IMG/VR virus record: IMGVR_UViG_3300038548_000082
Location: 30,889-94,888 of that record
DNA from: a virus
Taxonomy: Duplodnaviria > Heunggongvirae > Uroviricota > Caudoviricetes
Direction: 5' to 3' (one strand)
DNA: 64,000 nucleotides
In this document: positions 2,485-34,920 of the stretch, piece by piece
Numbering within the stretch: the first letter of the stretch is position 1
Layout: each line of letters begins with the position of its first letter
Program-made: the position numbers and the translations under genes
Notes under the pieces: generated by a model
Databases searched by the model: none
What the model was told of the DNA's origin: nothing
Seen by the model: the letters and a program-made list of their open reading frames with translations, nothing else

Positions 2485-2918
2485 GAGCATATTTCTTTCA
2501 GAACATGTACTTGCAAGGGATTCATGCAGGTATTCAAAGCCAGCATTGTACTGCTGAGATGTTCTGTAAGTACAGTATCGGTAATGATTTGGATCAACCT
2601 ATGGCAAGAACCTTATATGCTTGGGCTACCTTCCATAAAACAACTATCGTGCTTAATGGTGGCGATGCTTCCAACCTGAAACGTATTGCAACGTTACTGG
2701 ATTCTCACCCACATAATTACCCTTGGACTTACTTCGAAGAAAGTGAAGAAGCCCTTGGTGGTTGTATTACTAACGTGGGGATCATCTTGCCTGAGAAGAT
2801 TTTTAATCACTTTTCTAGTGATGGTGAGATTGTAGAGTGTCCCTACAGTAACACGACATTAACGGAGTTTGAGATTAACTTAGCAATGGAGGTATCACAA
2901 TGCAGGTTGATGAGCTAA
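2469..2918 (+). CDS. hypothetical protein
   Basis: ORF track 149 aa; translationally coupled to neighbours. Confidence 0.45.
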   Translation: MEQELRAYFFQNMYLQGIHAGIQSQHCTAEMFCKYSIGNDLDQPMARTLYAWATFHKTTIVLNGGDASNLKRIATLLDSHPHNYPWTYFEESEEALGGCITNVGIILPEKIFNHFSSDGEIVECPYSNTTLTEFEINLAMEVSQCRLMS

Positions 2919-3421
2919 ACAGTATTGTACAGCACTACGCTGGTTCCTTATCTTATGGGACCAACTTACCCACTTCGGATGTAGATATTCGAGGGGTATT
3001 CTGTGCTGAGCCTAAGAACATTCGTACACCCTTCTACCCTGTACGTGAAGTCACACTACAGGATGAAGAGGATGGTAAGTTATACGAGCTTAGTACATAC
3101 ATGCATCTATACACTCAAGGTAATCCTAATATCTTAGAGACCTTGTGGGTAGACAATACAGATATCATTCAAGGTAGCGATGTTTACTCCTACCTACGAG
3201 GCTATCGTACAGACTTGCTAAGTTCTAAGGTAGCCTTTACCTTTAGTGGTTATGCTATCAGTCAGTTGAAGCGTATCAAAGGTCATAACAAGTGGATAAC
3301 CCAAGAGCAACGTGGGTATGCTAAACTTAGGGCTTCATTACGTTCTGGTGATATTTCTGAGAACCAGATAGTATACCACTTCGGAGAAAAGACTCTAAAT
3401 AAGGTTAAGGAAACAAAATGA
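2900..3421 (+). CDS. predicted nucleotidyltransferase, N-terminal half (pfam10127-like), split gene
   Basis: Motif GSxxYGxxxxxSDVDxRGV typical of pol-beta-fold NTases; stop overlaps HEG start (ATGA). Confidence 0.55.
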   Translation: MQVDELNSIVQHYAGSLSYGTNLPTSDVDIRGVFCAEPKNIRTPFYPVREVTLQDEEDGKLYELSTYMHLYTQGNPNILETLWVDNTDIIQGSDVYSYLRGYRTDLLSSKVAFTFSGYAISQLKRIKGHNKWITQEQRGYAKLRASLRSGDISENQIVYHFGEKTLNKVKETK

Positions 3422-4053
3422 AGTATTATGTGTACACGCTGTCTGATAATCACAAGATTTTTTATATAGGTAAGGGTTCGGGGGACAGGATGTATCGACA
3501 TCTTAAAAAGGTTAAAAGAGGGGCTACAACGGACAATCACCACCTTGACAATAAACTGCAAAAGATGTTACGCGATGGTGTGCAAATCTCATACAACAAG
3601 GTGTATGAAACTGGTGATGAAGGTCTTGCTTATGCTCATGAAAGGGAGCTAGTTGCTAAGGTGGGACTTTCTAATCTCTGTAATATACAAGCAGGGGGTT
3701 ATGGTGGTAACAGTCCCTCACAAGAGACTAGAGACAAAATTAGTGCATCCAAAAAGAGGAAGCCATTGACAGAGGCACACAAACAGAAGTTACGAGAAGC
3801 CAAACTAGGGATAAAACAGACACAGGAAACAAAGGATAAGCGGTCTCTTTCACTGAAAGGTAAGCCACAAACCGATAAACAAAAGGCATCAAACCACAAA
3901 AGGGGTCTTAAGGGTAGAAAACTTACCGAGGAGCACAAGCAGAAGCTACGGGATGCGAAGTTGAAAAACCCGACTAAATACTGGCTAGGAAAAGAAATCC
4001 CAGAAGAAACTAAACAGAAGATATCAACTACTTTAAAGGGGACTGAGAAATGA
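3418..4053 (+). CDS. GIY-YIG homing endonuclease with NUMOD3 repeats
   Basis: KYYVY...IFYIGKGSGDRMYRH GIY-YIG motif; C-terminal repeated KGxKxxEEHKQKLR NUMOD3-like units. Confidence 0.8.
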   Translation: MKYYVYTLSDNHKIFYIGKGSGDRMYRHLKKVKRGATTDNHHLDNKLQKMLRDGVQISYNKVYETGDEGLAYAHERELVAKVGLSNLCNIQAGGYGGNSPSQETRDKISASKKRKPLTEAHKQKLREAKLGIKQTQETKDKRSLSLKGKPQTDKQKASNHKRGLKGRKLTEEHKQKLRDAKLKNPTKYWLGKEIPEETKQKISTTLKGTEK

Positions 4054-4727
4054 ATATAACCAAGTTACTCGCTGATCCTGACGTAAGTCTTTTAACAGAG
4101 GAGAAGCCACAGCACAAAGACTACTTAAAGTTGGTGCAGAACTTTACAACGGCTAAGATTCTACCAAGAGAGTTCAACTTTGATTATTTGCGTGGTCACA
4201 GCATGGTACATTATGGTGGTAATACCTTTGGTGTGGATACTGGAGGAAGTGTTAGTGCTGTTACTGTTGATGGAGATTTCAACGTCTCTGCAAAACAAGC
4301 AGAAAGGAACGCTAACTCAGGTCATACACCTAAGTACATAGTCAAGTACCTAGCAGAAGATTACAAGCTTGCTAAGGAGAAGCATTACAACTACTGGAAC
4401 TGGAAGAACAATCGTAATGAGAAAAGAAGTGCATTAGAAGAAGATTTCGGTTATGATACAAAACATGCCATGCACTTAGTACGATTACTACGTATGGGTG
4501 AAGAGATTCTTTCAGGTCAAGGTGTAATTGTTAAGCGTCCTGACGCTCAAGAGTTATTAGACATTCGAGCTGGTCAGTGGAGCTATGAGGAGTTATTAGC
4601 TTACGCTGAGACGAAGGATGAGCTGATTAGAGGCGAGTTGTACAAGAATACAAGCTTACCTAAGACACCTAACATTAAATTAGCTAGCAAGGTCTTGATG
4701 GAAGCTCAAGACATGTGCTGGAATTAA
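4050..4727 (+). CDS. predicted nucleotidyltransferase, C-terminal half (pfam10127-like helical region)
   Basis: KHAMHLVRLLRMGEEIL motif characteristic of the C-terminal region of the same NTase family; start overlaps HEG stop (ATGA). Confidence 0.45.
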   Translation: MNITKLLADPDVSLLTEEKPQHKDYLKLVQNFTTAKILPREFNFDYLRGHSMVHYGGNTFGVDTGGSVSAVTVDGDFNVSAKQAERNANSGHTPKYIVKYLAEDYKLAKEKHYNYWNWKNNRNEKRSALEEDFGYDTKHAMHLVRLLRMGEEILSGQGVIVKRPDAQELLDIRAGQWSYEELLAYAETKDELIRGELYKNTSLPKTPNIKLASKVLMEAQDMCWN

Positions 4728-4984
4728 GAGGAGGGTTCGCAATGGGTGCTGGAGGATTGAGCTTAGCTTGGGCAGTTAAAGCTACCGCAGGTTATCGACT
4801 TGAAAACTATGATGGTGCTTTTATTGTCTACCCCGGTGCTGCTGCTGATTGCAAATCCTACTGTATTCAAGAGTCATTAGAAGCAGTTGTTATTAACGAA
4901 AAAACAGACCAAATAACCTTGGAGAAATACTATGACGCAACAGGAAAAAGGTACATCAATCCTAACTCGAACGGTTATTTTTAG
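4715..4984 (+). CDS. hypothetical protein
   Basis: ORF track. Confidence 0.3.
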   Translation: MLELRGGFAMGAGGLSLAWAVKATAGYRLENYDGAFIVYPGAAADCKSYCIQESLEAVVINEKTDQITLEKYYDATGKRYINPNSNGYF

Positions 4985-5621
4985 TGGGGGTACGATGGTA
5001 CATGTACGTCCTCATTTTAGTTTGTGTGCTCCAGCTTATGGTAAGGTGGGGAGATCCATAGGCGATTTGTTGACATCATGTACTGGTTTTAATAAAGGTT
5101 CACACCTTATCGAAGTCCTCAGTACAAATATGGCTGGTGGTAACCACGGTATTGAAACCAACAACGACCTTGATACAGCTTTGAGTGGGGTTCTGGCAGA
5201 CCCTTTAACCAAAGTTATTGTTATGGCTGCTGCTGTTTGTGACTTCGAGCCACATCATTTAGAAAACTTTAAAATGATTACTCATGACTTCGGAAAGACT
5301 GAAGAACGTCTTAGTTCACAAGACAGCTACTCACTAACGCTAATACCTTCTGCCAAGATCCTTCAACGTATTAAACAGGAACGTCCTGATATCTTTCTGG
5401 TTAGTTTCAAAACTACCTCTGACGAGGACGTGACAGCTTTGATAAGTAAGTCTAAGCAGAACATGAGTGTGACAGAAGCAGATGTGGTCTTTGGTAATGA
5501 TATAAAACGCCATTTTAACCTGTTAGTTAGTGGGGAAAGTATTACCTCTCTTGATAGATCGGGATGTGTGTCTGAGTTGGTTGGTATTCTAAAAGATGTT
5601 GTTGAGAAGTTCGAGGTATGA
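4932..5621 (+). CDS. CoaB-like (DFP / phosphopantothenoylcysteine synthetase family) protein
   Basis: Alignable by eye to E. coli Dfp CoaB domain: TVIFSGGT..VRPHFS..APAYGKVG vs RVLITAGPT..VRYISNHSSGKMG; AAAVCDF vs CAAVADY; NDI vs NDV. Confidence 0.5.
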   Translation: MTQQEKGTSILTRTVIFSGGTMVHVRPHFSLCAPAYGKVGRSIGDLLTSCTGFNKGSHLIEVLSTNMAGGNHGIETNNDLDTALSGVLADPLTKVIVMAAAVCDFEPHHLENFKMITHDFGKTEERLSSQDSYSLTLIPSAKILQRIKQERPDIFLVSFKTTSDEDVTALISKSKQNMSVTEADVVFGNDIKRHFNLLVSGESITSLDRSGCVSELVGILKDVVEKFEV

Positions 5622-17758: not shown

Positions 17759-17952
17759 GTTATCTCCCCACGACCTTTAACAGTCTCTGTACCTGTGTCA
17801 TCAGGACCACCTGTAGCCTGTTCCCAACATACTCCCATAATAAAGCCAATAGCTAACACCGCAATAAAGCTTAAACTTAAAATCAAACCCATATCAACTC
17901 TCCTTAAATATTGATGCATAGATATTATGCACTTGTTTTGTAATCCTACCAC
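17752..17952 (-). CDS. small membrane protein
   Basis: ORF track. Confidence 0.3.
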   Translation of the reverse strand: MVGLQNKCIISMHQYLRRVDMGLILSLSFIAVLAIGFIMGVCWEQATGGPDDTGTETVKGRGEITC

Positions 17953-18499
17953 CGTTTAAGTGGTCTAGACGCTGTAAAAGCACCATAGCTTCGTTATTGT
18001 CTCTCAAGTTGTAAGTGGGTATACCTAATTTCATAGCTAGGTTAACAGCAGTCCTAGTCCCACCAAGAACTTGACCATACTCATCTGTTGGTGCGTAGTA
18101 GACTACAAAATCACTCTTAACCTTCTCCTTACCAAGCACCTGAAAGACGTTACGAGCGTGGAAAGCTTGTGTCATATCATCCATCTTGTCGAATTTAGGT
18201 AGAACCTCAGACTTTATCAACTGTTTCCTCGCCCATTGGAAAGCTTTATCATTCAAAGTCAAGTAATTGACACCATCAATGTTAGTAGCCTTCCTAAAAC
18301 CACCCCAAGGTAGGTAAATTGATGTCTTATTAGGTGAAATGCTTGCAGCACCTCTCTCAAAGTTAATATCACTACCAGATGCATGACCTGAACGCAGCAC
18401 TAAGCCCGCATGAGCAAGGTGAGCAGCAATAGCCACTTGAGCGAAAGCTACTTCTACGGGTACTCCCTCTTCCCTACAACCAATACCTGTATAAAACAT
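17894..18499 (-). CDS. DprA/Smf-like Rossmann-fold (SLOG superfamily) protein
   Basis: LRSGHASGSDINFERGA resembles DprA SGxAxGID..AHxGAL nucleotide-binding motif. Confidence 0.45.
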   Translation of the reverse strand: MFYTGIGCREEGVPVEVAFAQVAIAAHLAHAGLVLRSGHASGSDINFERGAASISPNKTSIYLPWGGFRKATNIDGVNYLTLNDKAFQWARKQLIKSEVLPKFDKMDDMTQAFHARNVFQVLGKEKVKSDFVVYYAPTDEYGQVLGGTRTAVNLAMKLGIPTYNLRDNNEAMVLLQRLDHLNGGRITKQVHNIYASIFKES

Positions 18500-20332: not shown

Positions 20333-20702
20333 TACCCCTGTAGAGGAAACAAGCCAAGAAGACCCTCAAAAGCGTAAAGGCTTCGGAAGTAATCCTGAGA
20401 ATATCAATAGGAAAGGTAGACCTAAAGGCAGTCGTAACAAGTCTAAGCTTATTCAAGCTCAGTTAGCATTTGACGACTATTCAACTCTTGCAGTAGAACG
20501 TCTAAAGCAGATCATGATGAATGATACAGCTGCGTTAGGAGTGAAAGAAGTCCCCGTATCGATGCAAGTACAAGCTGCTAAGGTAATCATTGATAAGGCT
20601 ATCGCTAACGAGAAAGAGAAAGACGCCAAGGCTAAAGCTAATACACCTACTAGGGAAACCCCGCAGGTTCCTAAAGTCTTTTCAACAGCTTCAGCAAACT
20701 AA
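20322..20702 (+). CDS. basic DNA-binding-like protein (GRPKGSRNK AT-hook-like motif)
   Basis: ORF track; could be regulator or small terminase-like, unresolved. Confidence 0.45.
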   Translation: MMSDTPVEETSQEDPQKRKGFGSNPENINRKGRPKGSRNKSKLIQAQLAFDDYSTLAVERLKQIMMNDTAALGVKEVPVSMQVQAAKVIIDKAIANEKEKDAKAKANTPTRETPQVPKVFSTASAN

Positions 20703-20715
20703 TTCAAAATAGGTG

Positions 20716-20744
20716 TTGACAGAAGCTGAAACAGGGCTTATACT
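20716..20744 (+). promoter_or_regulatory. strong sigma70 promoter (TTGACA-17-TATACT) driving tRNA-Arg
   Basis: Sequence. Confidence 0.6.
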
Positions 20745-20762
20745 TGTCGCATACAAATTAAA

Positions 20763-20836
20763 AGCCCCTTACTTAACAGGAGAAAGCTTAGTTTACGAAA
20801 CTAAGGATCAGGGTTCGAGTCCTTGAGGGGCTGCCA
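20763..20836 (+). tRNA. tRNA-Arg (anticodon ACG)
   Basis: Manual fold: acceptor AGCCCCT/AGGGGCT, AC stem TTAGT/ACTAA loop TTACGAA, T-loop TTCGAGT, CCA encoded. Confidence 0.7.
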
Positions 20837-21143
20837 ACATAGGAGAAGTTAAAATGAAAGTAACATGCAGTAAAGTTAAACGTCTCCGACAAGGTGGCGG
20901 CTCTAGTAACAGTCCTACAGTTACCAGTAAAGTAACAGCATTCCGATGGCAACCTAAAGACCTAAGCGATATTAAAGGTATTTAGGGTTACGGACACAAG
21001 GTGTCAGAAGGATTCCAAACCCTTCTTACGGGGAGCATTACCTCGGTAGCCTGCCAAAGAGAGAACAACGGATTAAGGGACAGGTACTTGCATCCTGCTT
21101 ATCGACGCTGTAACAAGCTTAGCAAGAAAAGTAAAATAAAGAG

Positions 21144-21171
21144 TTGACATATACAAGAGTCGTGTTATTAT
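21144..21171 (+). promoter_or_regulatory. promoter (TTGACA-16-TATTAT) with hairpin across -10
   Basis: Sequence. Confidence 0.5.
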
Positions 21172-21287
21172 AACCACTCTTGAAGAAAGAAATCCAAAGT
21201 AACTTAACAGAAACTAAGGAGGACGATATGCAAATCGGGGGCTAAAGACCCTCAGCCAAGAAAAGTAGAATTAACTGTTGACAGTGA

Positions 21288-21315
21288 GTAAAAACGTGTT
21301 ATACTGTGCAACATA
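21288..21315 (+). promoter_or_regulatory. promoter (TTGACA-16-TATACT) upstream of tRNA-Lys
   Basis: Sequence. Confidence 0.6.
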
Positions 21316-21376
21316 ACTTAAACTAACCCATAAGGAGGGTTTCAATGAAACAATCAGACAAACCCAATAAACTTAT

Positions 21377-21452
21377 GGGTGTGTAGCTCAATTGGTAGAG
21401 CAGGGAGCTTTTAACTCTCAGGTCGTCGGTTCAATCCCGACCACACCCACCA
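21377..21452 (+). tRNA. tRNA-Lys (anticodon TTT)
   Basis: Manual cloverleaf; GGGTGTG/CACACCC acceptor, loop CTTTTAA, CCA encoded. Confidence 0.85.
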
Positions 21453-21849
21453 AAGAGTGTATTTAAAGGAGACCTTTAACCACAACAGTTATAACATCGT
21501 GTTGATGTAGAAACAGTAAAGTTAGAGATCTCGTTTAAGTATATTCACTTGAAATAGATAATTCAGTGTAGCCTAAGAAGCAGCTTGAATGTACTTATAG
21601 ATCCTTTTAATTGACACATAGCAGCTAGTAATGAGTGACTAATTAGTCAATGTGTTCTATAAAATATTAACAATGAAACATTTGCTCTACGCACTAAACA
21701 GTAGAAACACATCTTATAAAGAAGATTAGTGGATGTAGAGCACTTAATTAAGGAGATTATCATGGAATCACGAGAGATTATAACCGATCCCAGATAACTC
21801 ACCGCAAACTATAAACGGTTGTGGTGGGTTTTATTTAGGATCACTACAA

Positions 21850-21926
21850 CCGAGTGTGGGGCAGTTTGGTAGCCTACTCTGTTTGGAACGGAGGTGTCGC
21901 AGGTTCGAATCCTGCCACTCGGACCA
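21850..21926 (+). tRNA. tRNA-Pro (anticodon TGG)
   Basis: Manual cloverleaf; loop TTTGGAA; T-loop TTCGAAT. Confidence 0.8.
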
Positions 21927-21939
21927 ATTTTTAAATTGT

Positions 21940-22015
21940 GTCCTTATAGTTTATATGGTTAGAACGGTGGGCTTTCACCCCGCAGAACCGAGTTCGATCC
22001 TCGGTAAGGACACCA
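21940..22015 (+). tRNA. tRNA-Glu (anticodon TTC)
   Basis: Manual cloverleaf; loop CTTTCAC. Confidence 0.8.
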
Positions 22016-22017
22016 AT

Positions 22018-22093
22018 GCTCTGGTAGCTCAGTTGGTAGAGCAAACGGTCGATAACCGTTAGGTCATTGGTTCAAGTCCAATACAGAGTACCA
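22018..22093 (+). tRNA. tRNA-Ile (anticodon GAT), C at position 33
   Basis: Manual cloverleaf; loop TCGATAA; 7-66 mismatch. Confidence 0.6.
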
Positions 22094-22100
22094 AATTAAT

Positions 22101-22170
22101 GCGGATAAGCTTAAGGTTAGTCGCTGGGTTTCCAACCCATGTAGTTAGGGTTCGACTCCCTGTATCCGCT
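22101..22170 (+). tRNA. tRNA-Gly (anticodon TCC), 3' CCA not encoded
   Basis: Acceptor GCGGATA/TATCCGC as in T4 tRNA-Gly; loop TTTCCAA; ends ...GCT then CAA. Confidence 0.7.
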
Positions 22171-22321
22171 CAAACATTGACAGCAAGATCTGAGGAAAGG
22201 TGGTTTCATGCAGTGAGATGCAGTCCTCTATAAATCTCGTAAAGCTCCTAATGTAGGAGTCGAACCACACGCTGTTAATTAGTCCATATGCTTTGGAAGA
22301 GTAATGGACGACCAAATTAAA

Positions 22322-22396
22322 GGTTTTGTAGCTCAGAGGCAGAGCAGTCGGTTGTCAGCCGTCAGGTCGGGATTTCAAAATTCCTCAAAACCGCCA
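22322..22396 (+). tRNA. tRNA-Asp (anticodon GTC)-like, noncanonical T-arm
   Basis: Acceptor GGTTTTG/CAAAACC; loop TTGTCAG; U-U mismatch in AC stem, weak 53-61 pair; possibly pseudogene. Confidence 0.45.
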
Positions 22397-22398
22397 AT

Positions 22399-22474
22399 GC
22401 TCGAATAGCTCAGTTGGCAGAGCGCCTCCCTTGTAAGGAGGATGTCGTGGGTTCAACTCCTACTTTGAGCGCCA
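22399..22474 (+). tRNA. tRNA-Thr (anticodon TGT)
   Basis: Manual cloverleaf; loop CTTGTAA. Confidence 0.8.
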
Positions 22475-22557
22475 AATTAAACGGGGGTGCTATAGACAAG
22501 GCTGGATAATTACCAGATGATATAGATTCCATCTCCGACCAAACAATTGCGGTATAG

Positions 22558-22633
22558 AGAAGTGGTTATCTCGTTGGGTTCATAACCCAAAGATCGGGGG
22601 TTCAAATCCCTCTACCGCTACCAAACATTAATT
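22558..22633 (+). tRNA. tRNA-Met (CAT), initiator-like
   Basis: GGG/CCC in anticodon stem, A11-U24, 1-72 mismatch (T-T); loop TTCATAA. Confidence 0.75.
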
Positions 22634-22655
22634 AATACAAGGCTGTATATATTAA

Positions 22656-22865
22656 ATGAGCGTGATACATTTAACGACTAAGATACAAGAAACAATTAAA
22701 ACGATCCTTACCCCTTTGGAAAAGACTGAAATGGAAGAGGTGATCGAGTCAGTAAATGATGAAAGTACTATTCGAGGCGAATGGGCTTTTGAAGCTGGTA
22801 AAAAGGCTAGAGATGTAGGAAGAACTAATTCACCACCTGAAGTCTACGATGTTTTAGTAGACTGA
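22656..22865 (+). CDS. hypothetical protein
   Basis: ORF track. Confidence 0.4.
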   Translation: MSVIHLTTKIQETIKTILTPLEKTEMEEVIESVNDESTIRGEWAFEAGKKARDVGRTNSPPEVYDVLVD

Positions 22866-22888
22866 AGTTACTTAACAAGTACAAACAA

Positions 22889-22965
22889 TTCCTCGTGGGG
22901 CGCAAGGTGTGCCGAGTGGCTGTTAACCACTGTCGTAGTAACGTTCGATTCGTTAACGGGGAGCC
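22889..22965 (+). tRNA. tRNA-Asn (anticodon GTT)
   Basis: Acceptor TCCTCGT/ACGGGGA, AC stem AGTGG/CCACT loop CTGTTAA, T-loop TTCGATT; 7-nt variable loop. Confidence 0.65.
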
Positions 22966-23048
22966 AATTTCGACTAGACATACTTAAATCGTGAGTTCAC
23001 GAGCCTTCGGGTGGGTTGGTCAAGTCTCTGTTAATATGGAGACAAAAC

Positions 23049-23423
23049 ATGAAAGTTTGCACTTTGTGCGAAGAGAATAAACCCTTAACCGAGTTTAGGA
23101 AAAGGGCTAATAGAACCGGGTATCATGTACACTGTAAACCCTGCCAAGTCCTTTACGTGAGTAATAGGAGAAGGGAAATAAAGAAGCAGTGTCTTGAGTA
23201 TAAAGGTGGGTGTTGTTCAAAGTGTGGTTACGATAAATCAGACTATGCTTTAGAGTTTCACCACAGAGACCCCGAAAAGAAAGACTTCAGTATAAATAGA
23301 GGAGCTTCTTTAGTTTTTGATAAACTAAAAGAGGAACTTGATAAATGTGACTTACTTTGTGCTAATTGCCACAGAGAGGAACACGAACGATTAACACATA
23401 CACTAGGAGATTCGTCATTATGA
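23049..23423 (+). CDS. HNH endonuclease
   Basis: CTLC...C..C zinc knuckle, EFHHRDP and CANCH motifs. Confidence 0.65.
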   Translation: MKVCTLCEENKPLTEFRKRANRTGYHVHCKPCQVLYVSNRRREIKKQCLEYKGGCCSKCGYDKSDYALEFHHRDPEKKDFSINRGASLVFDKLKEELDKCDLLCANCHREEHERLTHTLGDSSL

Positions 23424-23500
23424 ACTTTACTTATCAACATAGCCAATTTAGTTTCCAATATTACTTTAGTTAGATAAGTAGGTTCCCGAGTGGATGCTTA

Positions 23501-23584
23501 TTTAATATAGGGTCTGCTCGCATGATGGAGAATGCACCGCACTGTAAATGCGCTACGAGAGTTGTCTTGGTTCGATTCCAAGTA
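23501..23584 (+). tRNA. tRNA-Tyr (anticodon GTA), type II
   Basis: Loop CTGTAAA, long variable arm, T-loop TTCGATT. Confidence 0.6.
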
Positions 23585-23591
23585 GGCCCAC

Positions 23592-23677
23592 CAAAATTTA
23601 GGAAGATTGGCAGAGCGGTAATGCAGCTCCCTGCTAAGGAGTACAGTCGAAAGGCTGCGTAGGTTCGATTCCTACAT
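23592..23677 (+). tRNA. tRNA-Ser (anticodon GCT), type II
   Basis: Acceptor GGAAGAT/ATCTTCC, loop CTGCTAA, long variable arm. Confidence 0.8.
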
Positions 23678-23678
23678 C

Positions 23679-23754
23679 TTCCGCCAAGGGTCTGTAGCTC
23701 ATCTGGTAGAGCATCGGTGTGAAGTACCGAGTGTAATAGGTTCAAGTCCTATCA
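23679..23754 (+). tRNA. tRNA-Phe (anticodon GAA)
   Basis: Manual cloverleaf; loop GTGAAGT. Confidence 0.8.
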
Positions 23755-23877
23755 GGCCCACCAAATTATAGTGGTGGTCTAATGCAAACAGGTGAGCAGC
23801 TGGATTGTGATTCCAGTGATATGGAGTTCGAGACTCCAAGGCCACACATCTATTCTATCAACGTCGAGGAGACTGTT

Positions 23878-24264
23878 ATGGATACAAAAACGAAGGCTAA
23901 ACAAAAGAAAGCCCTTCAACTTGGTATGAACCCTGCCACAGCGAGTGGTAGGTTGGTTAAAGATACGCTATTCCGCTTAGCTGTATCTACAGGACACAAG
24001 TGCTTCCAGTGCGGTGAAGAACTAACCAGAGAAACGTTCTCCATAGAGCACATGGAACCGTGGTTAGATAGCGAAGACCCTAAAGGTAACTTCTTTGACC
24101 AAGGTAATATAGCTTTTAGCCACCTTAGTTGTAATCGTGCAGCAGCCCGCCCCAGACCACGTACAGCAACTCGTGCAGAGGCACAAGCTACCTTTCGAGG
24201 TAGATTGGGTAAAACCGAACAGGCTAGACGACGAAAGGAGCAGTACCAACGTACAGGCACCTAG
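23878..24264 (+). CDS. HNH endonuclease (terminase-associated type?)
   Basis: CFQCGEEL...SIEHMEPW...SHLSCN; internal ATG with GAGGAG RBS chosen over 23782. Confidence 0.55.
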   Translation: MDTKTKAKQKKALQLGMNPATASGRLVKDTLFRLAVSTGHKCFQCGEELTRETFSIEHMEPWLDSEDPKGNFFDQGNIAFSHLSCNRAAARPRPRTATRAEAQATFRGRLGKTEQARRRKEQYQRTGT

Positions 24265-24559
24265 ACACCAATTAATAAGGTTTTTATTATGAGTACAGAA
24301 GTGTAACTTACGTCAATAAGACGACAGTAAACATCAAAATTAAGGAGCTACAAAAGCTTCTTAAAACTGCACAGAACCCCATTATAAAAGATAGGCTTCT
24401 GGTAGACTTAAAGTCATATAGGGCAATAAAGCACCTATTAGATCAAAAAGATTAAAAGGAAATATACCAATGTTCAAAATTACTTACATACTATTATCGC
24501 TCTCGTTATCCCTTAAATAGGGAGGATGAGTAGCACCTTATCTTCCTTAACAATACATT

Positions 24560-24645
24560 GGAAGGTAGGGCTTAGTGGTAAGCAACTAGTCTTGAAAACT
24601 AGCCCTGTGTAAAAGCAGATGGTTCGACTCCATTACCTTCCTCCA
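24560..24645 (+). tRNA. tRNA-Ser (anticodon TGA), type II
   Basis: Acceptor GGAAGGT/ACCTTCC, loop CTTGAAA. Confidence 0.75.
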
Positions 24646-24652
24646 AACAATC

Positions 24653-24729
24653 GCTCCGGTGGTCAAATTGGAATAGGCAGCAGACTTAAAATCTGTGGAT
24701 TGCGAGTTCAACTCTCGCTCGGAGCACCA
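24653..24729 (+). tRNA. tRNA-Leu (anticodon TAA) with short variable loop
   Basis: Loop CTTAAAA, A73 discriminator, 5-nt variable loop (atypical for Leu). Confidence 0.65.
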
Positions 24730-24734
24730 AACAT

Positions 24735-24811
24735 GGGCTGGTATAAGAATTGGCATATTTGCCTCGCTTAGAACGAGGAGTTTTCGGGTTCGAGTCCCGA
24801 TCAGCCCACCA
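24735..24811 (+). tRNA. tRNA-Leu (anticodon TAG) with short variable loop
   Basis: Loop CTTAGAA, A73, 5-nt variable loop. Confidence 0.65.
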
Positions 24812-24830
24812 AATTCAAGACTAACCTCTA

Positions 24831-24881
24831 GGGCCTCTAGCTCAATTGGTTAGAGCACTCGACTCTTGGGAAGGCCCACCA
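24831..24881 (+). pseudogene. truncated tRNA-like element (acceptor + canonical D-arm + 3' acceptor-CCA; anticodon/T arms missing)
   Basis: GGGCCTC TAGCTCAATTGGTTAGAGC ... AAGGCCC A CCA, 51 nt. Confidence 0.35.
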
Positions 24882-25031
24882 AATCCACTAGATAGAACAC
24901 CAAACCCTTGTTAAACGACAGACGGAGGTGAACAGACGGCTTAGTATGCGTCATATCTTGGCTTGCAGGAAAGACTGCTATAAGGCTCGTCGTGAGACGC
25001 CCTGCCCCACCCACTACTTATTAAGGTTCTC

Positions 25032-30854: not shown

Positions 30855-31937
30855 ATGAAAATTGAACAAAGTGGAATCGAATTCGATAAGGCGCTAAGCC
30901 CTGCACAAGGAAGCGATTTTGAGATGGAGGACGTAAGTCCTCTCGTGGAACGAACTGAGGTCTCTCCGGGCCTCTTGACTGCCCTTTTAGGTGGGATGAC
31001 TAACGATGTTTTCCTAGAAACTAATACCATCAAGTATGATGAACTGGATGACACCGCTCAGTTGCCTGACGGTAAGGCGTTTGATGCTTACGGTCCAGAC
31101 ATTCAGAAAGACAAAGCTCGTCAGTTAATCTACGAAGTAGGTTCTTTCGGGATTCGTTCTAACGTAGCTCCTAAGGATTACGCAAATAAGCGTGTTCCCG
31201 GTACACAGGAACTAATGGATGAAGCATACCTGTTAGGTCGTATGAACATGAAGGCTGAGAAGTCTTGGGCAATGTTCGATGAGCTGGCTTTTGCTCAGCT
31301 ACTGACTCTGGATACAAACATCACTCGTGGTGGTCCTCAGCCAGTATACAACTACCATACAGATATTCTGGGTGGTGCTCGTCCCGCTAAGATCTCTATG
31401 AACTTGGCTGGTTCTGTAGATCACTTCCAACTGTTTGCTGAGCAACTTGACTTGCTGGAAACTGACGTTGAGAAGACCAACAACACTATGGATATGCCAG
31501 TGGTTATCTGTGGTAAGGACTTCTTCAACACACGTCTGACTATTGAGAAGCAAGAAGGACTAGCCCGTGATATGCGTGGTATCCTTGATCTGCAAACAAT
31601 GGGTGTACCAACTAGTAGCTTCGGTTCTGGTAATGGTCGTTTCCAATATCAGTGGTTCGATTCTTTCGACGGTCTACGTTACATCCGTTACAGTGCCTCT
31701 ATTCTGGGTACTAAGATGATCGGTGACGACGATGCTTACTTGATCCCTATCGGTGCTGAAACGTTCATGAAACGTGCTTATGCTCCTGCTCAGACACGTA
31801 CATACGTTAATACCACTGCTCAGAAGCGTTATGCTTGGAGTCGTGAGCATGAGCGTAATGGCGTAACAATGAATCAGGAAAGTAATTGCCTTCCTATCGA
31901 CGTGAATCCACAACTGATTCGTGCGTTGACTGTTTAA
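30855..31937 (+). CDS. major capsid protein
   Basis: 360 aa, position, followed by strong terminator. Confidence 0.65.
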   Translation: MKIEQSGIEFDKALSPAQGSDFEMEDVSPLVERTEVSPGLLTALLGGMTNDVFLETNTIKYDELDDTAQLPDGKAFDAYGPDIQKDKARQLIYEVGSFGIRSNVAPKDYANKRVPGTQELMDEAYLLGRMNMKAEKSWAMFDELAFAQLLTLDTNITRGGPQPVYNYHTDILGGARPAKISMNLAGSVDHFQLFAEQLDLLETDVEKTNNTMDMPVVICGKDFFNTRLTIEKQEGLARDMRGILDLQTMGVPTSSFGSGNGRFQYQWFDSFDGLRYIRYSASILGTKMIGDDDAYLIPIGAETFMKRAYAPAQTRTYVNTTAQKRYAWSREHERNGVTMNQESNCLPIDVNPQLIRALTV

Positions 31938-34425: not shown

Positions 34426-34920
34426 ATGTCAGTTAGTTTTAAAATGAAAAAGGTTGGAAACAGCTTACAAAAAATCACACAGCAATTCCACAAGATTGAT
34501 AATGAATCGGTAGAGGTAGGACACTTTAAAGAACAAGGCACACACCCTTCGGGGTTCACCTATGCTCAACTAATGGCCTTACACCATAATGGCGGTAATC
34601 CATCGGGTAGTGCGCCTATCCCACCTAGGCCTGTCTTAGACTTACTATTCTTCAAGAATTCGAACCTCTCTGATCCAAAGTTTGCAGCTGCATTTAAAGC
34701 TTGGAGGGGGAGAACCTTAAGCGAAAGTTCTAATGGTATACTCCTAGCACAAATAGGAATTATCCTTAGGAAGAAAGAAAAGGCTATATTCGGATCATCA
34801 GCACTAGCCCCTAATGCGGTTCCTCCTAAAGACAGGAATGACCCTCTGGTAGACACTGGTGAACTTAGGTCTAAGGTCGCTTATAAGACCTCTATTAACA
34901 AACAAGTGAAGGAGGAGTAA
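34426..34920 (+). CDS. virion morphogenesis / head-tail joining protein
   Basis: Position. Confidence 0.4.
   Translation: MSVSFKMKKVGNSLQKITQQFHKIDNESVEVGHFKEQGTHPSGFTYAQLMALHHNGGNPSGSAPIPPRPVLDLLFFKNSNLSDPKFAAAFKAWRGRTLSESSNGILLAQIGIILRKKEKAIFGSSALAPNAVPPKDRNDPLVDTGELRSKVAYKTSINKQVKEE

Follow-up and report, generated by a model that had tools for sequence, protein, structure and literature searches.

Leader open reading frames with codons matched to downstream tRNA genes in the tRNA island of an uncultivated phage

Why phages carry tRNA genes, and how these are controlled, is debated, the main ideas on the former being that they compensate for codon usage or that they replace host tRNAs destroyed by defence. 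The closest described organisation to the one considered here is the tRNA region of phage T5, which, like the T4 cluster with its SegB, is a dense tRNA array with host-type promoters and interspersed homing endonucleases, and in which small open reading frames (ORFs) abut or overlap tRNA 5' ends alongside tRNA-like RNAs or pseudogenes. Two regulatory systems also invite comparison. The attenuators of amino-acid operons (trpL, hisL, pheL, leuL, thrL and ilvL) begin with a short ORF, led by a Shine-Dalgarno sequence (SD), that is packed with the sensed codons, in some cases for several amino acids at once; for pheL, exclusive helices chosen by ribosome position have been described (PMC3082878). 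T-box riboswitches, in turn, act in cis as RNA switches that signal how much of a given tRNA is available. Here we analyse a stretch of 64,000 nucleotides (the window; positions 30,889 to 94,888 of IMG/VR record IMGVR_UViG_3300038548_000082), in which the region from 20.7 to 24.9 kb is an accessory tRNA island of a ~94.9-kb uncultivated phage akin to marine metagenome contigs. The island lies between a conserved gene for a 126-aa protein on one side and the large terminase (TerL) gene on the other, and it holds 17 tRNA genes, one aberrant conserved tRNA-Trp-like gene, at least one tRNA remnant, two HNH genes and near-consensus sigma-70 promoters. Coordinates are those of the window, and features lie on the + strand except where stated; the labels L001 to L062 denote the compared sequences, which are mostly metagenome relatives (L045 is phage T5).

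The island itself is of a known kind, and several of its oddities are common to other phages. Judged from its sequence, the most notable feature of the locus is a set of codon-matched leaders, which suggest that attenuation takes a new form here. Four blocks (Lys, Pro-Glu-Ile-Gly, Tyr-Ser-Phe-His and Ser-Leu-Leu) each follow an SD and an ORF of 10–17 codons rich in codons cognate to the tRNAs of the block, and a Trp-like unit provides a weaker fifth case with a leader of 43 codons. Wherever a relative has one of the blocks, it has the leader as well. Cognate fractions were gauged both against the phage's own codon usage (binomial P) and against 806 other mini-ORFs of the window. The leader of the Tyr-Ser(GCU)-Phe-His block (MNFTYQHSQFSFQYYFS, 23420–23473), the start of which overlaps the stop of the first HNH gene (ATGA), has 11 cognate codons out of 16 (P = 6.8e-8), a fraction reached by none of the 806 null mini-ORFs, and its Ser codons are all AGY. 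This leader is seen in three sequences, the fraction rising to 14/16 in L057 (MNTSYQQYQFSFHYYFS) and to 15/16 in L053 (MQHTYQQYSQSFHYYFS; P = 2e-12); the blocks of these two relatives include a tRNA-Gln, and Gln codons were counted as cognate there. Before Ser(UGA)-Leu(UAA)-Leu(UAG), the leader ORF at 24470–24520 (MFKITYILLSLSLSLK) has eight cognate codons out of 15 (P = 1.8e-4), as high a fraction being found in a single null mini-ORF, and its counterparts in six relatives contain a run of Leu and Ser written with UCN, CUN and UUA codons (for example MTTCIHILSLLLSLN, MNHMATYLLISLFSLL, MNFKTNNSLSLSLLSS and MTHTMTLSLSLLSLI). Relatives' leaders also reach 8/10 cognate codons (P = 2.6e-6). The choice of Ser codon tracks the tRNA: leaders use AGY where Ser(GCU) follows and UCN where Ser(UGA) does. 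Every leader fits its own block best. Just after the stop of the Ser-Leu leader, from 24527 onward, a GGGAGG-ATG begins another frame (MSSTLSSL...), which extends into tRNA-Ser; its equivalent in L050 ends 16 nt inside the tRNA, and the spacing between SD and ATG is too short for a normal start.

The remaining leaders are individually less enriched. The Lys leader (MKQSDKPNKLMGV, 21345–21386) contains three AAA codons, and its stop codon is formed by U8-A9-G10 of tRNA-Lys itself; three of its 12 codons are cognate (P = 0.036), and five of the 806 null mini-ORFs score as high. The arrangement is present in all eight distinct relatives as TTGACA-N17-TATACT, AAGGAGG, ATG and then 12–21 codons of which two to four are Lys, with the ORF ending within the tRNA or, in L061, at its nucleotide 1, and with the stop at tRNA nucleotides 8–10 in six of the eight. 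Distances from ORF start to tRNA are 32, 32, 32, 32, 38, 38 and 44 nt, all equal to 2 modulo 3, in seven of the eight and 45 nt in the other. Overlaps of this type between an SD-led ORF and a tRNA are otherwise rare, as judged by a scan of 175 tRNAs. The initial annotation, which was made from the sequence alone, had drawn attention to mini-ORFs in tRNA leaders, and although its coordinates were off by 2, it had correctly placed the Lys stop inside tRNA-Lys, and this mini-ORF is one of the conserved set. Its other example, MQIGG (21228–21245), found no support, as it sits in an insertion that is absent from L060 and different in L057. The Pro-block leader (MESREIITDPR, 21762–21797, before Pro-Glu-Ile-Gly) recurs in six sequences; it has four cognate codons out of ten (P = 0.16; 10/806 null mini-ORFs as high), and the leaders of relatives (MEQRERDISSDPR, MKHRENNPEPS, MERETNSVPR and MRKEEIINPR) always have Pro as the penultimate residue and always two Glu, with Ile codons only where the block has a tRNA-Ile. 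Finally, the leader of the Trp-like unit (43 codons, 20854–20985) has a stop that overlaps nucleotide 1 of the Trp-like gene, and its homologues (MKNNTLRWQTLVRQSSS in L060, MKHKTLRWQCLMRRSSD in L057 and ...GRWR... in L002) likewise all end at the tRNA 5' end. Only one of its 42 codons is cognate, which is not significant, 175 of the 806 null mini-ORFs (0.217) being as high. All the Trp-unit leaders contain CGA-UGG (20944–20949 in the window) and stand directly downstream of the Arg(ACG) gene, which is suggestive only. In the literature, we found no description of leader peptides before tRNA genes.

Four of the leaders are accompanied by conserved RNA helices. The Ser-Leu switch region (24499–24570), analysed with RNAalifold and by pair counts in six sequences, can adopt two conserved folds that are mutually exclusive. 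In the first, segment 0 (24499–24513), which comprises the Leu and Ser codons of the leader, pairs with segment 1 (24519–24534), and segment 2 (24536–24546) pairs with segment 3, that is, with nucleotides 1–11 of tRNA-Ser (24560–24570); 90% of alignment cells are paired, against 47–57% in slid controls, and ten pairs covary. In the alternative, segment 1 (24521–24530) forms a hairpin with segment 2 (24537–24546), with 88% of cells paired and four covarying pairs. At the Lys unit an anti-acceptor helix (21327–21379) joins CCCATAAG (21327–21334), which overlaps the SD (21332–21338), to CTTATGGG (21372–21379), which is made up of the last leader codons and nucleotides 1–3 of tRNA-Lys. MAFFT misaligned the two strands, and the duplexes were therefore analysed directly: RNAduplex gives -17.6 kcal/mol for the window against -6.0 kcal/mol for shuffles, values of -15.3 kcal/mol or lower are reached in six of eight family members as against 2/145 control tRNAs, and compensatory variants occur in L060 (CCCAATAG:CTATTGGG), in L053 (CCCGTAAAG:CTTTACGGG) and also in L050. 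The Pro and Tyr leaders have a hairpin only. The Pro hairpin (21795–21838) begins inside the leader stop codon and comprises 12 bp, five of the 12 pairs being compensatory in an RNAalifold consensus of six sequences; the Tyr hairpin (23475–23504) begins 2 nt past the leader stop and has 12 pairs, two of them compensatory, in three sequences.

Hairpins placed directly after the Tyr and Ser-Leu leader stops, and one that begins in the Pro stop codon and is followed in the window by GGTTTTATTT, are what would be expected of classical transcription attenuators, in which the hairpin is a terminator or pause site that a stalled ribosome blocks, so that read-through into the tRNA block is controlled. 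The T-run after the Pro hairpin is, however, found in the window only: the relatives and the other window leaders have no U-tracts after their hairpins, and a terminator scan of the window called none of them. Without U-tracts, the locus is not to be classed with the classical transcription attenuators. Termination would also leave unexplained the pairing of segment 2 with tRNA-Ser nucleotides 1–11 and of the Lys leader with tRNA-Lys nucleotides 1–3, and we regard this explanation as distinctly unlikely. What the locus has in common with leader attenuators is the short SD-led ORF, the enrichment in cognate codons and the exclusive structures; what it lacks is an intrinsic terminator as the output.

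The reading that we consider best, and modestly probable, is that these leaders exert an attenuator-like, ribosome-sensed control of tRNA maturation. A more specific proposal, which on the sequence evidence is plausible rather than probable, is that multivalent leader peptides sense, through ribosome stalling, how well the codons of their block are decoded, and switch an anti-acceptor helix that gates tRNA folding and maturation by RNase P; this would be a previously undescribed class of cis-regulator. The leaders would work like the attenuator peptides of amino-acid operons, with tRNA maturation as the output and the anti-acceptor helix in place of the terminator. At the Ser-Leu block, fast decoding would let the ribosome leave the leader, helices 0:1 and 2:3 would form, and the 5' strand of tRNA-Ser would be trapped; under slow decoding, a ribosome stalled on the Leu and Ser codons would mask segment 0, and the 1:2 hairpin could form, which would free the acceptor stem to fold and allow RNase P to cut. 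At the Lys unit, a ribosome held at an early Lys codon would mask the SD-proximal strand and keep the CCCATAAG helix open. The predicted outcome is more mature phage tRNA when its codons decode slowly, as might follow from a poor host codon match or from cleavage of host tRNAs by defence nucleases. Phage tRNA-Lys and tRNA-Tyr have been reported to protect infection against three systems that cleave tRNAs, namely PARIS, retron-Eco7 and Septu (PMC11464382, PMC13096335). Relative to amino-acid-operon attenuators, such a device would differ in that the downstream genes are tRNAs and not biosynthetic enzymes, in that the final helix pairs with the tRNA 5' strand and has no U-tract terminator, and in that the sensed quantity would include the device's own product. 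It would differ from T-boxes, which bind uncharged tRNA directly and control aminoacyl-tRNA synthetase or amino-acid genes, in sensing by way of the translating ribosome; Rfam found no T-box motif.

A number of observations weigh against ribosome-sensed control. There is no such leader ORF upstream of the Asp-Thr, Met, Asn and Arg units, no single one of the Lys, Pro and Trp enrichments is more than modest, the Ser-Leu leader has a weak SD, and the relatives, being homologous, do not count as independent trials. In two of them, L057 and L061, the Lys duplex is weak, and a duplex between the Trp leader and the tRNA 5' end is not significant relative to shuffles. To this may be added the general scarcity of U-tracts already described, the fact that both the direction of regulation and the assignment of the gated step to RNase P were deduced from geometry, and our failure to find an experimental precedent for processing control in the literature. 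In addition, the Ser-Leu helices force segment 0 to be pyrimidine-rich, which favours Leu, Ser, Phe and Pro codons, and therefore part of the Ser-Leu enrichment could be a by-product of pairing; nevertheless, even under a pyrimidine-rich null, P is ~0.004 for eight codons out of eight to be Leu or Ser. The leaderless units, the modest enrichments and the ability of pyrimidine-rich pairing strands to bias toward Leu and Ser codons would all fit a simpler view, namely that this is an ordinary island of the T5/T4 type whose tRNAs supplement codons or replace cleaved host tRNAs, and whose small ORFs and helices arose incidentally, as remains of gene starts, as hairpins for processing or through a constraint on the RNA alone, and sense nothing. 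The similar make-up of the T5 region, with its tRNAs, HNH genes, promoters, tRNA-abutting small ORFs and tRNA-like RNAs, speaks for this view as well. Set against it are the Tyr-block leaders, with 11–15 of 16 codons cognate, the right Ser codon family and no null ORF as high; the co-variation of leader content with block content; and the persistence of SD, ATG and frame through in-frame indels, as seen in the Lys distances. The T5 likeness is one of organisation alone, there being no DNA homology beyond single tRNAs, and the T5 ORFs are longer and show no cognate-codon enrichment, except for T5.070; nor did we find comparable leaders, again except for the Cys-rich T5.070, in the tRNA loci of T5, Suspvirus, Vibrio phage X1 and Yersinia phage P778. 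On balance, we consider the ordinary-island explanation unlikely.

The T5 exception deserves mention in its own right. T5.070 (34627–34755 of the T5 record) encodes 42 aa of which five are Cys, ends 5 nt before the T5 tRNA-Cys(GCA) and has a cognate P of 5e-6; the product may be a zinc ribbon, or the ORF may be a leader like those in the window. The tRNA array of Erwinia phage Fifi450 has no obvious leader ORFs, and E. coli pheV, a tRNA-Phe gene considered as a possible precedent, has no leader ORF. If ribosome-sensed control of tRNA maturation is true, the phage would make tRNAs on demand, for instance when host tRNAs are scarce or are cut by nucleases that act on the anticodon or the variable loop, and the locus would testify directly, at the level of the genome, to feedback control of phage tRNA supply by decoding capacity. 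The logic of attenuation would then extend to a new output, the folding and processing of tRNA, in units that are small (~150–400 nt) and portable.

A second unusual aspect of the island is its pair of type I tRNA-Leu genes. As the initial annotation had observed and ARAGORN bears out, Leu(UAA) (24653–24729) and Leu(UAG) (24735–24811), both also found by Rfam, are each 77 nt long with a variable loop of 5 nt; neither has the arm of at least 10 nt forming a stem-loop that defines type II. Type I tRNA-Leu genes occupy the same Ser-Leu-Leu position in L039/L057, L043/L044 and L050-52, whereas the same slots hold one type I and one type II (86 nt) gene in L002 and two type II genes (84 and 86 nt) in L053. 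Genes for tRNA-Leu of 76–78 nt are annotated in Suspvirus mistaenkt and in Vibrio phage X1 (Pogseptimavirus) and are present in Yersinia phage P778, while that of T5 is type II (85 nt); type I tRNA-Leu is thus not peculiar to the window phage but occurs in several phage families. No description of a phage type I tRNA-Leu was found in the literature. In a gap-free alignment of 13 phage sequences, U8, A14, the AAUUGG D loop and A73 are present in all 13 and C2-G71 in ten, and the cloverleaf has 96.5% of cells paired with 17 of 20 pairs covarying. As A73 and A14 are the Leu identity elements in E. coli (PMC9976931), the conservation of these elements together with the covariation makes the genes look like functional tRNA-Leu genes. 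Type I tRNA-Leu is otherwise represented by that of human mitochondria and by tRNA-Leu(CAA) of Streptomyces coelicolor, which likewise have a short variable loop and an identity based on A73 and A14 (PMC6614811; PMC9976931). The phage genes differ from these in that they retain a D arm in the bacterial type II style (a 3-bp stem and the AAUUGG loop), and in that the leucyl-tRNA synthetase (LeuRS) of their hosts is reported to use type II tRNA-Leu. Septu and retron-Eco7 cut the long variable arm of tRNA-Tyr (PMC13096335), and by analogy it is possible that short-arm Leu tRNAs resist nucleases that cut long variable arms. The phage type I genes bear on the rules of LeuRS recognition and possibly on the evasion of such nucleases.

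In view of the failure of E. coli LeuRS to charge the type I tRNA-Leu of S. coelicolor (PMC6614811), the type I Leu genes, together with the Trp-like gene and the CCA-less Gly and His genes, might be read as pseudogenes or as tRNAs charged with another amino acid, and the island as decaying; tRNA remnants are indeed present, and the Trp-like element, which Rfam misses, does not have the T54-Psi55-C56 and G18-G19 consensus. The conservation and covariation just described argue otherwise for the Leu genes, which moreover match the commonest Leu codons of the phage (TTA, CTT and CTA), and the stems of the Trp-like element covary across three phages. In our estimation decay is very improbable.

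The Trp-like element (20985–21056) is a tRNA-Trp(CCA)-like gene with a cloverleaf that is also its minimum-free-energy fold; ARAGORN in its -mt mode assigns it to Trp(cca). The acceptor ends in G73-CCA, the D arm consists of a 5-bp stem and a loop of 3 nt, the anticodon loop is closed by an A.C pair, and the T loop is non-canonical (AGCATTA, as compared with ATCGAAA and ATCGTTA in relatives). As it has no Rfam match at E<=10, it is not counted here as a canonical tRNA. In local alignment it scores best against the tRNA-Trp of Vibrio phage X1, a gene with a D arm of the same dimensions (5 bp and 3 nt), and this score exceeds those of all 200 shuffles. In synteny, the element corresponds to Trp in L002 (Arg-Trp-Lys) and in L040 (Trp-Lys). 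Homologues are found in L060 (6719–6790) and L057 (6720–6791): three double substitutions that preserve pairing, one each in the D, anticodon and T stems, separate the window copy from that of L060, all other differences between the two being in loops, and across the family alignment pairing holds in 92.8% of cells and 15 of the 22 pairs show covariation, with compensatory changes in all four stems. The sequence thus points to a conserved tRNA-Trp-like gene of uncertain competence and not to debris. Downstream of it, a conserved hairpin (GATTAAGGGACAGG...CCTGCTTATC, 21071–21103) has ten pairs, one of them compensatory, in an RNAalifold consensus of the window, L060 and L057.

The initial annotation had called this gene one of two degenerate elements consisting of an acceptor stem and CCA, a description that its homologues contradict. 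The other, a 60-nt element in a tRNA slot between Thr and Met with a 7-bp terminal stem and ACCA (22482–22541), has a fold z of -1.96 and gained no support, since none of the relatives has a homologue and its matches to tRNAs are not significant. A 7-bp stem with NCCA occurs at ~0.5 per kb per strand elsewhere in the window, a chance rate, and therefore does not on its own single out either element. The truncated remnant noted at 24831–24881 fared better. It gives a sub-threshold Rfam match (17.3 bits, E=7), keeps the acceptor stem, D arm and CCA but not the part from the anticodon to the T arm, and occupies the slot of an intact tRNA-Met(CAU) in L039, L040, L043, L044 and L051, its acceptor stem and 5' flank being common to the L039 Met gene. 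It is an internally deleted tRNA gene, the ancestor of which would have been an elongator Met or Ile2 gene. The 150-nt spacer at 22172–22321 ends in a hairpin and GACCAAATTAA, with a TTTGGAA loop that resembles the anticodon loop of Pro(UGG); it may be a decayed Pro paralogue, although the match is not significant.

The 17 tRNA genes themselves (20763–24811) are the union of 16 found by ARAGORN, spanning the same interval, and 16 that pass the gathering threshold of Rfam RF00005 (29 bits) with scores of 30.7–71.8 bits; the two lists differ by one gene each, Gly being found by Rfam and Asn by ARAGORN. An island with unusual members had been correctly recognised in the initial annotation, and all of its 16 anticodons are right, but the count is 17 because it had missed tRNA-His(GUG) (23774–23847), a gene with G at -1, A73 and no encoded CCA. 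Overall, its observations were partly confirmed and its interpretation partly supported. Both methods find His as well as Arg(ACG) (20763–20836; 45.3 bits, CCA encoded), Lys(UUU) (21377–21452; 71.8 bits), Pro(UGG) (21850–21926), Glu(UUC) (21940–22015), Ile(GAU) (22018–22093), Asp(GUC) (22322–22396), Thr(UGU) (22399–22474), Tyr(GUA) (23510–23593), Ser(GCU) (23601–23686), Phe(GAA) (23688–23763), Ser(UGA) (24560–24645) and the two Leu genes. The noncanonical pairs noted in Ile and Asp are present (G7.A66 and G1.U72 in the former, a U.U pair in the anticodon stem together with an odd T stem in the latter). Gly(UCC) (22101–22171; Rfam span 22101–22170) is reported by ARAGORN at a relaxed threshold only, but Rfam scores it at 36 bits, and it is a real gene that has U73 and, as had been claimed, no encoded CCA. 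The Met(CAU) gene (22548–22623; Rfam 67 bits) is initiator-like, since it carries all the hallmarks that had been ascribed to it: a U1.U72 mismatch, the GGG/CCC of G29-31:C39-41, and A11:U24. The GGG/CCC is absent from its orthologues in L039, L053, L060 and L061. CCA is encoded in 15 of the 17 genes, each time followed by A; the claim of a common CCA-AATTAA trailer after most of the tRNAs did not hold, as the exact trailer CCAAATTAA follows only Ile and Thr, with one orphan site at 22312, and CCAAATT has five of its six window sites in the island. Sub-threshold Rfam matches to STnc150, YrlA, Plastid-ycf2 (antisense to tRNAs) and, at Ser-UGA, tRNA-Sec were treated as noise.

Asn(GUU) (22890–22966), which Rfam misses even at E<=10, has a 7-nt variable loop, and extended variable regions mark the Asn(GUU) genes of this family: the region is 14 nt in L060 (11128–11211), and in L002 (967–1052) and L061 (7482–7567) the genes are 86 nt long and type-II-like, with G73, which is the opposite of what is seen for Leu. 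An Asn-decoding tRNA with a long arm and G73 might be recognised by seryl-tRNA synthetase too. The Asp(GUC) gene shares 81% identity with an Ala(UGC) gene from L050, and its D arm and odd T arm (U53.U61, GGGATTTCAAAATTCC) are common to the Gly(UCC) genes that relatives carry at the Gly-Thr position (comparison sites: L050 3859–3933, L040 4374–4448 and L001 2228–2301). From the sequences, this likeness among Asp, Gly and Ala genes looks like alloacceptor remoulding of one tRNA scaffold. In L053, a Ser(GCU)-Phe-Gln-His block is tandemly duplicated (4020–4375 and 4682–5037), which recalls the tRNA amplification driven by a homing endonuclease that has been reported for T6 SegB (PMC13096335).

As for the wider setting, the metagenome relatives, which include a TARA ocean sample, have TerL proteins 78–86% identical to that of the window, and TerL is ~50% identical to those of Aeromonas and Klebsiella myoviruses. 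Between the 126-aa gene and TerL, the number of tRNA genes ranges among the relatives from 0 to over 20, so that the island is an accessory, fast-changing module; in L058 and L062 the 126-aa gene is followed by other genes or by TerL itself with 0–1 tRNAs, and the island is therefore dispensable within the family. Megablast against GenBank phages gave no close relative at the DNA level and matches to single tRNAs only, Aeromonas phage 2L372X, the nearest cultured phage by TerL, carries no tRNA genes in the vicinity of that gene, and a scan of metagenome contigs with TerL returned distant relatives only; pattern scans of IMG/VR for the Lys leader and a tRNA-like element returned L002 or chance matches only, and a scan with the 126-aa protein nothing useful. 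Codon usage in the phage is A/T-ending, with 34% GC at third codon positions, and the U34-rich set of anticodons fits it. Three promoter-like sites, each with 11 of 12 consensus positions, lie in the first part of the island: a sigma-70-like TTGACA-17-TATACT upstream of tRNA-Arg (20716–20744), a second within a window-specific insertion (21144–21171) and that of the Lys unit (TTGACA, an extended -10 and TATACT; 21278–21305), which is kept in L002, L040, L050, L053, L057 and L060. The two HNH homing-endonuclease genes are at 23049–23423 (PHROG 2255 at 5.6e-38, with a weak Pfam HNH match) and 23878–24264 (PHROG 23251 at 1.2e-28).

Outside the island, at 1258–2484, is the full-length gene for a CCA-adding/repair enzyme that the initial annotation had attributed to the phage. 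Matches to Pfam (PolyA_pol head PF01743, RNA-binding PF12627 and HD PF01966), to NCBIfam NF008137 over the full length (446.4 bits, just below the cut-off of 451) and to PHROG 2244 (4.5e-126) agree, and with its head, RNA-binding region and HD domain of the gamma-proteobacterial type the predicted product belongs with the class II CCA-adding enzymes. Such an enzyme is needed because the Gly and His genes have no encoded CCA. Adjoining it are genes for an RlaP-like nucleotidyltransferase of an RNA-repair family (2900–3421) and a GIY-YIG/NUMOD3 endonuclease (3418–4053), and together the three may form an RNA-repair neighbourhood. Upstream of the island, on the - strand, is a gene for a DprA-like DNA recombination mediator (17894–18499; PHROG 768 at 4.5e-46).

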